Part shown: one piece after another, positions 19,686-24,000 of the stretch
Layout: every line of letters starts with the position of its first letter
How positions within the stretch are numbered: the first letter of the stretch is position 1
Source of the DNA: Buttiauxella sp.
GTDB lineage: Bacteria; Pseudomonadota; Gammaproteobacteria; Enterobacterales; Enterobacteriaceae
DNA length: 24,000 nt
Assembly (NCBI RefSeq): GCF_035271705.1
Contig: NZ_DATERI010000143.1
Location: forward strand, 3,264-27,263
Reading direction: 5' to 3'
Made by a program: the position numbers and the translations under genes
The notes under the pieces: model-generated
What the model was told of the DNA's origin: nothing
Database searches by the model: none
The model's input: only the letters and a program-made list of their open reading frames with translations

Positions 19686-19830
19686 TAATCGTTCTCCTTT
19701 ACAGACTACAGCGGCGAAAGTTATCCGCGATCAACCCAATGAAAACCTTAGCCGAATATCCGGCCAGTGGTAGGGGAGATGTCTCATAATCAGATAAAGG
19801 AGATAATTTACCCTCTTGCTAACCGCCTGC

Positions 19831-21213
19831 TTAGCCTTGTGGATTGACCAACCATGTACCCGCTTTTTCAATTGATAACGTTACGCTTCGTGACTGATTA
19901 TTATCCCGCAAGGTAATCTCATATTTGCCCACCGGCAGTTGCAACAAGCCGTAACCATTGGTTCCTGGCGAGATTTTTTCGGTCTTGCCGTTAACGTCCA
20001 ATTGTTCGCCGTCGTTCATGCGCACATAAAGGCGTGCCATCGTCCCTTCAGCCACAGGCAGTGCACTTTTAGCCTCAGTAACGTCCCCTTTTTCCACGGC
20101 CGACTTTTCAGCTTTGGTCGTCTGGGGTGAAGAAACGGAAGGAGAATGATGACTGAAAATGAAACCGCCAATCGCCACCCCGATCAGCAAACTGGCAGCA
20201 ATCTGGAGAGGAAATTTGTAACGCTTCCTGAAAGGTGAAAGGGGGGTGATTTCCGCATCTTCCACGGCTATCAGCATCGTGCCGGGCTGTTTCGGTGTCA
20301 GGCCATTGATACCGCTTAGCGGTATTTCGGCTAGTGTGACAAAATCGGCGATAGATTGCGGGCGATCCTCAGGTTTTAACGCCAATGCGCTATCCACCGC
20401 CTGCAACAGGCTATGGGAATAACCTTCCGGTCGATTTTTCGCAAGCTTCACGCAAGGGTCTTGAATGGTGCGGGTGACACTGGCTGGTGGATAGGTGCCA
20501 GTAATCAGCGTGTAGAGAATCGCACCAAGAGCGTAGATATCCGTCCACGGCCCAAGTTGGTTTTCGAGGTCTTCAGCGTATTGCTCAAGTGGAGCAAATC
20601 CCGGATTCAGAGGCGTTTTAACTTCATCGCCATTTTCTGATTGAGTAAAGCGTAGCACGCCAGAATTAAGCAGCAATGGCACACCGTTATCCTGAATCTG
20701 AATACTTTTTAACGACAAGTCTCGATGAATAAAACCTTCATCGTGTAATGTCGCCAGCGCCCCACATAACATGGGTAGCATGCTACGAATCCAGGTTTCA
20801 TTAATCATTTCGGGTTGATGCTGATGCAATTCAGCTAGCGTCACGCCGCTTGAAAAGCGCGTCGCCGCGTAGGCGGTTTCGTTTTGTGTCCAGAAGCTTA
20901 AAACTTGCAGCAAATTCGGATGGTTGAATTGCGCAAGTTGGCGGGAGGACTGCACAAAACGCTTCATACCTACATTAAACGCCTGGCTGTCCTGTTTGCT
21001 GCGTAACACCAGTTGCATGTTATCGCTACGCACCGTCAGGGCCCGCGGCATAAATTCGCGGATAGTGACTGGGCGTTCTAGCTGGTGGTCCCACGCTTTA
21101 TAAACCACGGTAGTGTTATTAGATTCAGTGACTTGAAGAATTTCAAATTCGTCGAAACGGAAACCAGGCGGCAGAGCGTCAGGAATATCTGTTTTGTAAT
21201 CTTTATCAGTCAT
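19831..21213 (-). CDS. Single-pass membrane Hanks-type Ser/Thr kinase-like protein with degenerate catalytic motifs (predicted pseudokinase) and a periplasmic PEGA-like C-terminal domain
   Basis: Residues about 20-295 show a kinase fold: LPPGFRFDEFEI..., FNHPNLLQV, IHRDL, FAPLEQY, GPWTDIYALGAILYTLITGTYPP and PEDRPQS. Catalytic positions are substituted: the G-loop has no Gly, the VAIK Lys is Arg52, the alphaC Glu is Ser, HRDLSLKS replaces the catalytic loop, and NSG replaces DFG. A TM helix PLQIAASLLIGVAIGGFIFS spans aa 335-354 (20152-20211). The C-terminal ~70 aa are beta-rich (ARLYVRMNDGEQLDVNGK...LPVGKYEITLRD...), resembling PEGA domains. Confidence 0.78.
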   Translation of the reverse strand: MTDKDYKTDIPDALPPGFRFDEFEILQVTESNNTTVVYKAWDHQLERPVTIREFMPRALTVRSDNMQLVLRSKQDSQAFNVGMKRFVQSSRQLAQFNHPNLLQVLSFWTQNETAYAATRFSSGVTLAELHQHQPEMINETWIRSMLPMLCGALATLHDEGFIHRDLSLKSIQIQDNGVPLLLNSGVLRFTQSENGDEVKTPLNPGFAPLEQYAEDLENQLGPWTDIYALGAILYTLITGTYPPASVTRTIQDPCVKLAKNRPEGYSHSLLQAVDSALALKPEDRPQSIADFVTLAEIPLSGINGLTPKQPGTMLIAVEDAEITPLSPFRKRYKFPLQIAASLLIGVAIGGFIFSHHSPSVSSPQTTKAEKSAVEKGDVTEAKSALPVAEGTMARLYVRMNDGEQLDVNGKTEKISPGTNGYGLLQLPVGKYEITLRDNNQSRSVTLSIEKAGTWLVNPQG

Positions 21214-21252
21214 GGTGGTCTTACTCTGCTCGAAATCGACGAAACTTCAGGA

Positions 21253-22206
21253 TTATTTCTGGGTGCGCCATACGCCAACCGCTGGATCACGCAATTGCGG
21301 ACGCAGGGAATCAATTAACAACAGCGTGATAGGCGTATCTGGCGCAAGCCACGCTGACCAGACTTCTCGCACGGAATTTAAACGTTTCTGAATAGCGCCT
21401 TCATCCACCGCCATCTCGCGTGATATTTCCACAGCAATAGTGCCCGTTGCTCGCCAGCCATTCAGCTCTGCTTGATAAGGTAAAATCATCCAGCTCAGTG
21501 GGGCATGTTCATTACTGACCACCATACGCTGGTTATTAAGACTGGTGATGAGCAGGCTGTCAGAATTGGCGTCGGCGCTTAATCCGCTGACCGGAAAACC
21601 ATGCACAAAAGTCATCATATGGCGCGTTTCGCCATTCACACCGCTCTGAATGATTTCACTGTGACCGTTCAACCAGCCACCTTTTTCACATTTGCCGTTG
21701 GGGATAAACATGGCTGATGAATTGGCATCACCTTGCCAGAAGGTACGCAGATGGCAGCCATCTTGCAGCGTAAATTCTTGCCACGGTGTGCGGTCAGCTA
21801 ATGGTGAGTTTTCTACGCGAGTGGATTGGGTGTTAGGTTCAATGGAAACGATAGGCGCGATAATCACTTGCCAGTCGCTGCTTTTGCTCGCGGTACCCAC
21901 TGCAAGCGCTTGACCTTGTGGATCTTCCATTCGCCAACTGACTAATTGCACTGCGCTACACTGGTTTTCCAGCAACGCTCCCAGACGGGGCATAAAAACG
22001 TTGAGTAGCGACGGGTTTTTATCACCATTGGCGACGATGCGCAGAGTGAGTTCTTGCGCACACCAGCTTTGCGGCGTGTTGTTTTGCACATCGTCAATCC
22101 AGACATCCAGCTTTTGCGAAGGAGACTGGACGATACGATAGTTACCAGTCGCCCACACCGTGGTAGACGCCAACAATAGCGCCAGACCCGAAAGCCAGAG
22201 TTTCAT
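21253..22206 (-). CDS. Secreted (periplasmic) Trp-rich protein of unknown function
   Basis: The 317-aa ORF has an AAGGA RBS 5 nt upstream and a Sec signal peptide MKLWLSGLALLLASTTVWA|TG. Four Cys lie at 49, 83, 151 and 173. The mature protein has 12 Trp (~4%). I recognise no domain. It lies between the lipoprotein and kinase-like genes with 57-nt and 39-nt gaps. Confidence 0.6.
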   Translation of the reverse strand: MKLWLSGLALLLASTTVWATGNYRIVQSPSQKLDVWIDDVQNNTPQSWCAQELTLRIVANGDKNPSLLNVFMPRLGALLENQCSAVQLVSWRMEDPQGQALAVGTASKSSDWQVIIAPIVSIEPNTQSTRVENSPLADRTPWQEFTLQDGCHLRTFWQGDANSSAMFIPNGKCEKGGWLNGHSEIIQSGVNGETRHMMTFVHGFPVSGLSADANSDSLLITSLNNQRMVVSNEHAPLSWMILPYQAELNGWRATGTIAVEISREMAVDEGAIQKRLNSVREVWSAWLAPDTPITLLLIDSLRPQLRDPAVGVWRTQK

Positions 22207-22263
22207 AAAAATCCTTGTTAGCCTAACAACTTAAGAAAAAATGATGACGTAAAACGTCGACAA

Positions 22264-22758
22264 TTAATCAATGATCCAGGTGCCGCTGTTCGCATTCTGA
22301 CACGCTTTGCTACTGCCATCGACAGCAACACAGGTGGTTTTTTTAGCCGCATGACGTGGACGTGGACGGTCTTTTTTTAGTGTCTGTGCATACAGTTCAC
22401 TTTTCACCACTGCACGCGCCGGGACGTAACCCAACATTTCCTGTTTATCCTGCTCTGCAATGGCCAGCCAATTATTCTCAACTTGCCCCAAAACGGTATA
22501 ACTTTGCCCAGTCTCAAGGGTGTTGATGACTTTCCCACCGAAGTCCGGTTTGCTCATAATTGACCCAGAATACAGCGCCTTAAAACTTGCGTTGACGGGG
22601 GTGAATTCTTTAGGTGCGGTAACCGCGTAACGGTGCGTCAGCGTGACACCATTGATTTCACTGGTCACGATCGTGTCGTCAGTCATTTTTGGCGGTGGCG
22701 TTTTACAGCCTACAACAGTGGCAACAACGGCAAGGATCAATAGATTGCGCAATTTCAT
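22264..22758 (-). CDS. SH3b-like domain lipoprotein
   Basis: The 164-aa ORF has a lipobox ATVVG|C and Lys at +2, with no Asp retention signal. The core FKALYSGSIMSKPDFGGKVINTLETGQSYTVLGQVENNWLAIAEQDKQEMLGYVPARAV has the pattern of bacterial SH3_3 domains. A basic linker KKDRPRPRHAAKK follows, then a C-terminal Cys-X9-Cys. Confidence 0.68.
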   Translation of the reverse strand: MKLRNLLILAVVATVVGCKTPPPKMTDDTIVTSEINGVTLTHRYAVTAPKEFTPVNASFKALYSGSIMSKPDFGGKVINTLETGQSYTVLGQVENNWLAIAEQDKQEMLGYVPARAVVKSELYAQTLKKDRPRPRHAAKKTTCVAVDGSSKACQNANSGTWIID

Positions 22759-22875
22759 CGTAACGTTCCCTGAAAAAATGGTTCAAACCTGGCCGCCGAG
22801 AAAGGGTGAGATGGCGTAGAAATAATCCAGGAATCTTAAGAATGACTAATATATTACCAATACAGACTAACGTTA

Positions 22876-22903
22876 ATTTTACATTGCCTGATTAACAATT
22901 CAA
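22876..22903 (-). promoter_or_regulatory. Candidate sigma-70 promoter of the lipoprotein/periplasmic/kinase-like operon
   Basis: The reverse strand reads TTGAAT-16 nt-TAAAAT about 115 nt upstream of the lipoprotein ATG. It is embedded in an imperfect inverted repeat, TTAACAATTCAATG (22892-22905) / CATTAAGTGTTAA (22926-22938). An alternative TTGGTA-16-TAAGAT lies at 22833-22860. Confidence 0.3.
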
Positions 22904-23625: not shown

Positions 23626-24000
23626 CTAATTCCGGCATCCACGGAACAAATCAAGGTCCGGGTTATACACGCGGGTACTGATGTCCCAAAGCCCTAACAC
23701 CGACGAGAACACGTTGTCGTGGGAGTAGTCGTTTTTAACCGCATTATTTTTCAAACACGCCATATTCATCTGTTTGTCAGCGATAAAACCGGGTGACATC
23801 CACACCTGCATCGGAATATGCGCTTGCTGATCCGGTGCCAGTTTGTACGGTGTGCCGTGCAGATACAGGCCACTTTCACCCAGTGACTCACCATGGTCGG
23901 AAACATACAGCAGTACAGTGTTGTACTGATCGCTGTATTTTTTCAGCTTTTCAATCATTTGTGCCAGCACGTGGTCGGTATAGCGCACAGTATTGTCGTA
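23626..24000 (-). CDS. Phosphoethanolamine transferase, EptA/EptB (sulfatase-fold) family, C-terminal 124 codons; the 5' end lies beyond the window end
   Basis: The translation YDNTVRYTDHVLAQMIEKLKKYSDQYNTVLLYVSDHGESLGESGLYLHGTPYKLAPDQQAHIPMQVWMSPGF...YSHDNVFSSVLGLWDI...LFRGCRN carries the conserved YDNT..YTD and SDHGES.GE.G.YLHG motifs. The C-terminus resembles E. coli EptB more than EptA as I recall them. The reading frame is open to position 24000. Confidence 0.85.
   Translation of the reverse strand, partial: YDNTVRYTDHVLAQMIEKLKKYSDQYNTVLLYVSDHGESLGESGLYLHGTPYKLAPDQQAHIPMQVWMSPGFIADKQMNMACLKNNAVKNDYSHDNVFSSVLGLWDISTRVYNPDLDLFRGCRN

Follow-up and report, generated by a model that had tools for sequence, protein, structure and literature searches.

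The window analysed here, a stretch of 24,000 nucleotides from Buttiauxella sp. (NCBI RefSeq assembly GCF_035271705.1, contig NZ_DATERI010000143.1, positions 3,264 to 27,263 of the forward strand), carries a gene, ppkA′, whose product PpkA′ is, rather than a PknB-like kinase of the generic sort, a paralogue of PpkA, the inner-membrane serine/threonine kinase in the threonine-phosphorylation pathway of type VI secretion systems (T6SS). PpkA′ lacks the residues that bind ATP and Mg, from which we infer the loss of ATP binding and of catalysis. The gene is under purifying selection and is not decaying, and it is accompanied by paralogues of two other T6SS genes, rtkS and tagV. From this combination of sequence features we propose, with moderate confidence, that PpkA′ is a trans-envelope sensor with a non-catalytic cytoplasmic output.

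A degenerate paralogue of PpkA

The gene and the parts of its 460-amino-acid (aa) product are the following:

19831..21213, minus strand: ppkA′, intact open reading frame (ORF), 460 aa, degenerate paralogue of PpkA; the coordinates include the stop codon
20326..21180, minus strand: cytoplasmic kinase-like (pseudokinase) domain, aa 12-296, from alignments, PF00069 and Foldseek
20155..20208, minus strand: single predicted transmembrane (TM) helix, aa 336-353, a helix in the AlphaFold2 (AF2) model; hydrophobic LQIAASLLIGVAIGGFIF
19834..20043, minus strand: C-terminal periplasmic beta-domain, aa 391-460, from phmmer to 9k1u_D and from AF2

Serratia PpkA (Protein Data Bank, PDB, entry 5hnv) aligned without a gap to aa 12-296 of the ppkA′ product (phmmer E=2.6e-93, 316 bits), and a Foldseek search with the AF2 model returned PpkA (5x1r/5hnv) as the top PDB matches (E~1e-27). 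The Pfam profile PF00069 also gave a kinase match (58.1 bits, cut-off 31.7), with only aa 84-286 aligned, meaning that the profile cannot follow the N-lobe strands bearing the Gly-rich loop and the VAIK Lys, which have diverged too far. In the AF2 model the kinase fold is followed by the TM helix (336-353) and an all-beta domain (392-456), the latter with a predicted local distance difference test (pLDDT) score of 80-87. This periplasmic domain (aa 392-458) matches 9k1u_D, an 89-aa chain named 'Serine/threonine protein kinase', with a phmmer E-value of 3.7e-13.

Of the features that define the PpkA/TagE family, PpkA′ therefore shows the kinase homology, the TM helix and a periplasmic domain of the RtkS-binding type, and lacks the intact catalytic residues and the location in a T6SS cluster. 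Of the features of a pseudokinase (a kinase fold without one or more of the VAIK Lys, HRD Asp and DFG Asp), it has the fold, a loss of catalytic residues that is conserved among orthologues and the maintenance by selection that sets it apart from a pseudogene, and it is predicted to lack phosphotransfer activity and nucleotide binding. Proteins of this type are publicly annotated as 'serine/threonine protein kinase', a label which, judged by the residues described below, is probably wrong in the enzymatic sense and overstates their capability.

An earlier reading of the same DNA, made from the letters only and called here the sequence-only reading, had recognised the intact 460-codon frame, which is the ORF at 19831..21213 on the minus strand. 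It had placed a pseudokinase at 20329-21156, a range that does hold the kinase-like domain (aa 20-295) and is only a part of the 460-aa protein. The PpkA (T6SS) parentage and the operon with paralogues of RtkS and TagV had escaped it.

Loss of catalytic residues

Against Serratia PpkA, the catalytic positions of the window protein read as follows:

21109-21126, minus strand: Gly-rich loop, aa 30-35, degenerate; ESNNTT versus GEGGFG
21058-21060, minus strand: beta3 Lys replaced by R52, codon CGC; TIRE versus AIKE
20947-20949, minus strand: alphaC Glu replaced by S89; QSSR versus QEAR
20704-20706, minus strand: catalytic-loop Asn replaced by S170; HRDLSLKS versus HRDISLDN
20665-20667, minus strand: DFG Asp replaced by N183; NSG versus DFG
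20719-20721, minus strand: HRD Asp, D165, kept, from the same alignments

The triplet N183-S184-G185 is encoded by AAT TCT GGC at 20659-20667. A phmmer alignment with Mycobacterium tuberculosis PknB (3orm) set D165, S167 and S170 opposite the D, K and N of HRDVKPAN, and N183 opposite the DFG Asp. Thus, of the five key residues K52, E89, D165, N170 and D183, the window protein retains a single one, D165.

The sequence-only reading had assigned these residues by eye to the Hanks subdomains. Its register is upheld by the phmmer alignments with both PknB 3orm and PpkA 5hnv, the codons that it quoted (CGC at 21058-21060 and those at 20659-20667) are indeed in the sequence, and the losses it described in the Gly-rich loop, at the beta3 Lys, at the alphaC Glu and at the DFG Asp are borne out by the 5hnv alignment. 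In the catalytic loop it was correct that D165 is kept and that S170 replaces the Asn, and mistaken in counting Ser167 as a lost Lys: active PpkA reads HRDISLDN, position 167 is Ser in 123/123 canonical PpkA clusters (see below), and among 55 PpkA-like kinases that are more distant it is K, A or S.

Canonical and degenerate clades

The best 120 database matches of PpkA′ split into two sharply distinct kinds, canonical and degenerate. Together with the canonical set of a second search they gave a sample of 123 canonical and 82 degenerate clusters. The closest named relatives of PpkA′ are Buttiauxella proteins; identity among ppkA′ orthologues is 73-86% in Buttiauxella and 54-65% in other genera. 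The degenerate clade comprises proteins of Buttiauxella, Cedecea, Scandinavium, Pseudescherichia, Siccibacter, Dryocola, 'Enterobacteriaceae bacterium H20N1' and some Enterobacter sp., and canonical PpkA was found in Kosakonia, Cronobacter, Salmonella, Enterobacter, Franconibacter, Serratia, Pantoea, Erwinia and others. Clustering at 50% identity merges the degenerate clade with canonical PpkA (best match 50% identity).

The canonical motifs are near-invariant (GGGGFG / AIKE / FIQEAR / HRDISLDN / DFG), with K52, D165, N170 and D183 each present in 123/123 clusters and E89 in 122/123. Even among the more distant PpkA-like kinases, 55/55 have the beta3 Lys, both catalytic residues Asp and Asn, and D and G in the DFG motif. 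The same five positions are occupied as follows in the 82 degenerate clusters:

K52: R 75, N or H 6, K 1
N170: S 79
D183: N 48, E 17, D 15, S 1, T 1
D165: D 39, N 25, R 18
E89: E 48, S 16, Q 15, D 3

The degenerate clusters retain between zero and three of the five residues, mostly one. Of the 82, 81 have another residue at the beta3 Lys, 67 at the DFG Asp and 43 at the HRD Asp, and the catalytic-loop triplet varies between HRD, HRN and HCR. Among the window residues singled out by the sequence-only reading, R52 (75/82) and S170 (79/82) are conserved in the orthologues, and N183 (48/82) and D165 (39/82) are not. Since the former catalytic positions vary in this manner, a relocated active site is argued against. 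The replaced Gly-rich loop follows a pattern of its own, [DEQ]-[STA]-[ST]-[NH]-[TD], which suggests that it may have acquired a structural role. Thr198 in the activation loop (window nucleotides 20620-20622) is present in 123/123 canonical clusters and 1/82 degenerate ones, and is a candidate autophosphorylation site of canonical PpkA.

Outside the catalytic centre the two clades have much in common. The same residue occurs in at least 90% of both clades at 121 positions, among them the N-terminal extension, much of the C-lobe and key residues of the periplasmic domain, and conservation of the periplasmic domain is about equal between the clades (0.72 versus 0.68). A further 18 positions are conserved within each clade and switched between them, including K52R and N170S and, in the periplasmic domain, E410K and K425Q.

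Two variants were seen in the wider family. Nine canonical-type proteins (P0169, P0171, P0173, P0174, P0177, P0179, P0180, P0189 and P0201) read DLG in place of DFG; the named members of this set are from Pluralibacter gergoviae, and DLG also occurs in some of the distant kinases of loci L031-L085. Long PpkA-like proteins of 600-970 aa (P0208, P0209, P0215, P0216, P0218, P0223, P0224 and P0231) contain two or three tandem kinase domains, at least one of them degenerate (for example VIRE / HGD / EPA), meaning that a pairing of kinase and pseudokinase recurs in cis in the wider PpkA-like family.

Selection on ppkA′ and its neighbours

Each of the 82 degenerate clusters has the full length of 450-465 aa, and the ORFs are intact in 12/12 loci. 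Ratios of non-synonymous to synonymous substitution rates (dN/dS, or omega) were calculated by the Nei-Gojobori method (NG86) from five Buttiauxella genomes, where pairs with dS above about 1.5 need caution. The ranges within Buttiauxella were:

ppkA′, whole gene: 0.05-0.13
ppkA′, N-lobe: 0.01-0.075
ppkA′, C-lobe: 0.04-0.08
ppkA′, periplasmic domain: 0.05-0.19
rtkS′: 0.07-0.13
tagV′: 0.04-0.11
treA: 0.03-0.07

The values for ppkA′ are similar to those of the neighbouring genes, and all three genes of the module are under purifying selection. With full-length orthologues, intact ORFs and a dN/dS of 0.05-0.13 within Buttiauxella, the view of the sequence-only reading that this is not a decaying gene stands.

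Between genera, the degenerate kinase domain has an omega of 0.11-0.22 at 62-76% aa identity, as compared with 0.02-0.05 at 88-94% identity for the kinase domain of canonical PpkA, where dS is similar or larger. The non-synonymous rate of the degenerate domain is 3-6 times that of canonical PpkA. The non-kinase remainder has diverged to a similar extent in canonical and degenerate proteins. Constraint has thus been relaxed several-fold in the kinase domain specifically, and is still far from neutral.

The tagV′-rtkS′-ppkA′ module

Upstream of ppkA′, on the same strand, are the two partner genes:

21253..22206, minus strand: rtkS′, 317-aa periplasmic paralogue of RtkS; the signal peptide ends in VWA
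22264..22758, minus strand: tagV′, 164-aa outer-membrane lipoprotein, paralogue of TagV; lipobox VVGC with Lys at +2
22848..22903, minus strand: two overlapping sigma-70-like promoter matches upstream of tagV′, weak
19749..19766, minus strand: hairpin resembling a terminator, located after the ppkA′ stop and before the treA start, weak

In Serratia, RtkS binds the periplasmic domain of PpkA and is needed for PpkA stability and for Fha phosphorylation (PMC6082577), and TagV is an outer-membrane, probably peptidoglycan-binding, accessory lipoprotein of the T6SS (PMC7614798). The rtkS′ product is 53% identical (E=7e-129) to a 328-aa gene product encoded after fha-pppA in the T6SS cluster of Enterobacter mori, a gene called RtkS here by its position and length, which match PMC6082577. 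RtkS′ aa 133-313 also match the 'Type VI secretion system-associated protein' of 9k0l/9k1p/9k1u (E=7.4e-31), and its four Cys are conserved in 29/29 homologues. RtkS′ thus combines homology to an in-cluster RtkS with a signal peptide for the periplasm and with conserved Cys residues.

TagV′ matches the NCBIfam TagV model NF041850 with E=2.3e-52 and 177 bits; since the equivalog cut-off is 300 bits, TagV′ is a divergent paralogue and not an equivalog. Its match to Pfam SH3_3 (24.1 bits) is under the 27-bit cut-off. Cys18, W97 and Cys143/Cys153 are conserved in 19/19 homologues, W97 and C143/C153 being the W100 and C145-C155 of Serratia TagV. TagV′ thus has the lipobox with a residue other than Asp at +2, the SH3b Trp and the C-terminal Cys pair.

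The start of rtkS′ is 57 bp downstream of tagV′ and its end 39 bp upstream of ppkA′. These short gaps, the conserved gene order and the weak promoter and terminator matches point to tagV′-rtkS′-ppkA′ as a probable three-gene operon. Promoter-like matches in the region upstream of tagV′ were no more numerous than in shuffled sequence, and those found there are only consistent with an operon start.

The other genes of the window are ldcA, emtA, ycgR, ygjK/ygjJ, ebgRAC, a TonB-dependent receptor gene, treA and an mcr-9-like gene. The last, at 23626-24000 (minus strand), is a gene for a phosphoethanolamine-lipid A transferase of which only the 3′ part is present, since it runs off the window end; the last 120 aa of the fragment score 240.7 bits against the MCR-9 model NF033836, above EptA, with the full-length cut-off inapplicable to a fragment. 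This gene agrees with a Buttiauxella-like origin of the window. No T6SS core genes, fha or pppA are found within the window, and tblastn with PppA, TssE/F/G, ClpV and VgrG gave no match in the window or in the orphan-module loci.

Distribution and history of the module

The three genes occur in the same order and spacing in at least 12 loci of at least six genera, with differing flanks. The contig scan sampled part of the distribution and did not contain the Buttiauxella type strains, whose loci were taken from the contigs encoding the proteins. The loci are:

Buttiauxella: the window, L001, L086, L087, L088
Cedecea neteri: L002/L003
Pseudescherichia: L005, L009
Siccibacter turicensis: L007
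Enterobacter sp. ENT03: L008
Scandinavium lactucae: L015
Metagenome-assembled genome (MAG) labelled Buttiauxella: L006

No T6SS core genes lie near the module at the 12 loci. In canonical Enterobacteriaceae T6SS clusters the order is fha-pppA-rtkS-impE-like (Pfam ImpE)-tssE-tssF-tssG-clpV-ppkA, and in those of Erwiniaceae it is tagV ... pppA-rtkS-ppkA. A megablast search of 19700-22800 against an Escherichia coli genome collection gave no match, so the module is absent there.

Most of the module loci adjoin treA or are a few kb away from it, and some species have insertions between the two. In B. agrestis (L087, 11373-17507) and B. warmboldiae (L088, 11398-16035) unrelated gene blocks are inserted, one a sulfatase / radical-SAM maturase / SSF transporter block and the other IclR / MFS / dehydratase, from which the module-treA junction is an insertion hot spot. 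The adjacency to treA is probably positional and not functional.

Three same-strand genes lie between ppkA′ and treA in Cedecea neteri (L002, 11448-15394) and in L006 (11525-15386), encoding a 386-aa protein of no family, a 464-aa coiled coil with a Ser-rich tail, and a 445-aa DUF6384 protein; the DUF6384 match was the only one that Pfam and PADLOC gave for the Cedecea genes. They are present in two separate branches of the orphan-module clade and absent from the window, and may be ancestral partners of the module and candidates for its output partner.

Trees were built by neighbour joining (not maximum likelihood) on Kimura-corrected distances with 200 bootstraps. The orphan-module sequences are monophyletic for PpkA (200/200), RtkS (195/200) and TagV (195/200). 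In the PpkA and RtkS trees the orphan clade is sister to the in-cluster Enterobacteriaceae copies; the TagV tree contained no in-cluster Enterobacteriaceae TagV. A long stem branch is seen in the PpkA tree only, not in those of RtkS or TagV. The simplest reading is that one ancient event put the three genes together outside the Enterobacteriaceae-type T6SS cluster from which they derive, followed by loss of catalysis and then by vertical inheritance as a unit.

A further orphan set was found in an uncultured Enterobacteriaceae MAG (L019, 6812-11413), where tagV, rtkS, an ImpE-domain gene and ppkA lie between xseA and lacI/phosphotransferase-system genes, with no further T6SS genes within 10 kb. 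Lys, Asn and DFG are retained in its PpkA, which has GGGDFS and HCD motifs and lies on a long branch. This set may be an independent or an intermediate case.

The parent T6SS in host genomes

Canonical Pseudescherichia PpkA and the TssF of its cluster were used as queries, and the best 120 clusters of each were considered, reaching down to 68% and 71% identity, respectively. These clusters span Enterobacteriaceae, Erwiniaceae, Pectobacteriaceae, Yersiniaceae and Hafniaceae. None of the best 120 canonical PpkA or TssF clusters is from Buttiauxella, Cedecea, Scandinavium, Siccibacter or Dryocola, and none of the six complete chromosomes that bear the module is the longest contig of any of these clusters. 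Complete genomes with the module include those of Buttiauxella sp. WJP83 (CP110080.1), B. agrestis (AP023184.1), Cedecea neteri (CP023525.1) and Pseudescherichia vulneris (CP086374.1). Only Pseudescherichia shows both kinds at the genus level, with the orphan module in L005 and L009 and the canonical cluster in L011 and L012; in this genus the module may cross-talk with canonical PpkA. We found nothing relevant in the literature on the T6SS content of Buttiauxella or Cedecea. The distribution suggests that the module usually persists without the parent T6SS, and since the cognate PpkA-type T6SS is apparently absent, the module has probably been exapted to a cluster-independent role.

A proposed trans-envelope sensor and its alternatives

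In the sensor that we favour, TagV′ at the outer membrane and cell wall, RtkS′ in the periplasm and PpkA′ in the inner membrane would form a trans-envelope sensing chain. The cytoplasmic output would be a conformational or oligomeric change of the pseudokinase domain, with no phosphotransfer, by which the domain would scaffold or allosterically control a cytoplasmic partner. Such an output has precedents in EssB/YukC (PMC12599244, PMC9600267) and in the dimerisation-driven activation of PpkA/PknB-type kinases. After the split from canonical PpkA, the kinase domain lost its Gly-rich loop, beta3 Lys, Mg-binding Asn and DFG Asp, and then evolved several-fold faster than canonical PpkA, at a rate still well short of neutral; hallmark residues were retained in the periplasmic domain and in RtkS′ and TagV′. 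A bolder version is possible, and we hold it only tentatively: the operon would encode a trans-envelope sensor of T6SS descent, which persists although its secretion system is gone and has been exapted so that a dead kinase domain relays a signal from the envelope or cell wall to a cytoplasmic target unrelated to the T6SS. The three downstream genes of Cedecea and L006 may be remnants of the output of such a sensor.

Several points weigh against this proposal. The AF2 model is of moderate confidence (mean pLDDT 63.8) and was built from a 19-sequence alignment. Loss of ATP binding and catalysis is a deduction from sequence, and the HRD and the beta3 Arg still present would leave room for residual or unusual nucleotide binding in the Buttiauxella lineage. 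The cytoplasmic output partner of PpkA′ is hypothetical. A physical TagV′-RtkS′ link would have no experimental precedent, the TagV paper (PMC7614798) reports no test against RtkS or PpkA, and the putative operon is read from the 57- and 39-bp gaps, the kept order and weak promoter and terminator matches. The absence of a cognate T6SS was drawn from best-120 lists with incomplete naming and not from whole-genome scans, and a different or more divergent T6SS could be present in the module hosts.

The alternative that survives best, although we regard it as rather unlikely, is that PpkA′ regulates a canonical T6SS in trans, either by forming heterodimers with PpkA or by titrating Fha/PppA or RtkS, and so acts as a decoy or an allosteric activator. 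PpkA-type kinases are activated by dimerisation (PMC6082577, PMC13584744), proteins with a kinase and a degenerate kinase in tandem exist, PpkA′ has 121 residues in common with canonical PpkA, and Pseudescherichia possesses the orphan module (L005, L009) as well as the canonical cluster (L011, L012). However, most host genera have no canonical PpkA or cognate TssF among the best 120 clusters, and this cannot be the general function. The module also brings its own RtkS′ and TagV′, and the conserved charge switches E410K and K425Q in the periplasmic domain suggest insulation and not cross-talk.

An atypical active enzyme, performing phosphotransfer, AMPylation (as in SelO) or glutamylation (as in SidJ) through a relocated R52, K39 or D165, is improbable. 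The domain is under purifying selection, there are SidJ-type precedents (PMC12599244), the window protein and 39/82 clusters retain D165, S170 is found in 79/82, and R52 (75/82) could contact phosphates. No alternative catalytic constellation is conserved, however: D165 is N or R in 43/82, position 183 varies between N, E, D, S and T, and K39 is confined to most of the Buttiauxella copies, with R, H, Q or D in the others. In no member does the Gly-rich loop have more than two Gly, most having one or none, Buttiauxella has lost the alphaC Glu, and both the Mg-chelating Asn and Asp are gone from the window protein. The 'non-canonical catalyst' that the sequence-only reading had offered as an option is likewise disfavoured, since neither N183 (48/82) nor D165 (39/82) is conserved.

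It is very improbable that the three genes are a decaying relic, that is, leftovers of a lost or rearranged T6SS cluster with the kinase a functionless pseudogene in the making. Such a relic would fit the lack of T6SS core genes in the window, the apparent lack of a cognate T6SS in the host genera, the 3-6 times faster non-synonymous evolution of the kinase domain relative to canonical PpkA and the variation of the catalytic positions among orthologues. It is largely refuted by the dN/dS values (0.05-0.22, with the N-lobe at 0.01-0.075 within Buttiauxella), and 82/82 clusters are full length and 12/12 loci intact. Gene order is kept in at least six genera despite changed flanks, both clades show conservation of at least 90% at 121 positions, and the replaced Gly-rich loop has its own conserved pattern.

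An anti-phage defence kinase related to Mad6 or PD-T4-6, to which PADLOC (mad6, E=1.9e-28, with many PD-T4-6 matches) and NCBIfam (MAD6, 63.8 bits) pointed, is refuted by the stronger PpkA orthology (316 bits) and the gene context, since these are generic domain matches (63.8 against a 460-bit cut-off), the neighbouring genes have no PADLOC matches and the catalytic residues that such kinases need are missing.

Implications

PpkA, RtkS and TagV have each been characterised in Serratia; what the window adds to them is a degenerate PpkA in an orphan module with paralogues of RtkS and TagV. It is this PpkA paralogy, together with the operon, that supplies the context in which the pseudokinase finding has its meaning. 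Bacterial pseudokinases are a recognised class, few of which have a defined context or function, and PpkA′ is a tractable one, with a clear parent, structures of that parent and two co-inherited partners. The input branch of T6SS phosphorylation can evidently last long without kinase chemistry and apparently without the secretion machine, and its persistence suggests that receptors of the PpkA type can signal through scaffolding or allostery.

TagV′, RtkS′ and PpkA′ are strictly co-inherited, which on genetic grounds is evidence for a joint action of TagV with RtkS-PpkA, a link made in neither the TagV nor the RtkS papers. As a corollary of the bolder version above, canonical TagV would be the missing outer-membrane input to RtkS-PpkA, like that of TagQ-TagR-PpkA in Pseudomonas, and its so far unexplained role in T6SS firing would be accounted for.

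Comparison with known systems

In the literature that we searched, a review from 2026 on accessory factors of the T6SS included, neither a PpkA-derived pseudokinase or degenerate PpkA, nor a tagV-rtkS-ppkA module of the orphan type, nor a functional link of TagV to RtkS-PpkA is described. A 2025 review lists seven bacterial pseudokinase families, ActPs1-3, GLW, CP1, DYD and DLHK (PMC12599244). Like PpkA′, these are of the Hanks type with several degraded motifs, and many are membrane-anchored. None of them is described there as derived from PpkA or a T6SS, and PpkA′ fits none of their defining features: unlike GLW it has HRD, and TIRE instead of LLLL/W at VAIK; unlike CP1 it has a TM helix and no COG3899 or other extra cytoplasmic domain; and it is not actinobacterial and has no helicase fusion.

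A likeness is also found in EssB/YukC of the type VIIb secretion system (T7SSb; PMC9600267, PMC12599244), which, too, spans the membrane once and has a pseudokinase domain in the cytoplasm with a degraded Gly-rich loop and degraded catalytic motifs. It is a dimeric scaffold and not an enzyme (PMC12599244). It differs from PpkA′ in its Firmicutes lineage, in its extracytoplasmic domain and in being a core component encoded inside the secretion cluster.

The parent, PpkA (TagE; 5hnv, 5x1q-t; PMC6082577), has in common with PpkA′ the N-terminal extension ALPxGxRFxEFEI, the Hanks fold, the TM helix, the beta-domain, an RtkS-type partner and the 121 shared positions. PpkA′ differs from it in the loss of the Gly-rich loop, beta3 Lys, catalytic Asn, DFG Asp and Thr198, and in Buttiauxella of the alphaC Glu as well; its gene lies outside a T6SS cluster, without fha, pppA or core genes, in hosts apparently without the cognate T6SS. 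In the RtkS-PpkA complex (9k0l, 9k1p, 9k1u) the two crystallised chains are homologous to RtkS′ aa 133-313 and PpkA′ aa 392-458, and the four conserved Cys of RtkS′ fit the DsbA dependence reported for RtkS (PMC6082577). The canonical complex stabilises and activates a kinase that phosphorylates Fha, whereas PpkA′ is predicted to have no kinase activity, and PpkA′ has a periplasmic domain that is set apart from the canonical one by E410K and K425Q.

In outline, tagV′-rtkS′-ppkA′ also resembles TagQ-TagR-PpkA of the P. aeruginosa H1-T6SS, where an outer-membrane lipoprotein, a periplasmic protein and PpkA follow one another; the two are likened by layout only, P. aeruginosa PpkA's periplasmic domain having been reported as distinct (PMC6082577). 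The output of the Pseudomonas system is phosphorylation. By analogy with that layout, the co-inheritance of tagV′, rtkS′ and ppkA′ suggests that the module may follow the same logic as TagQ-TagR-PpkA.

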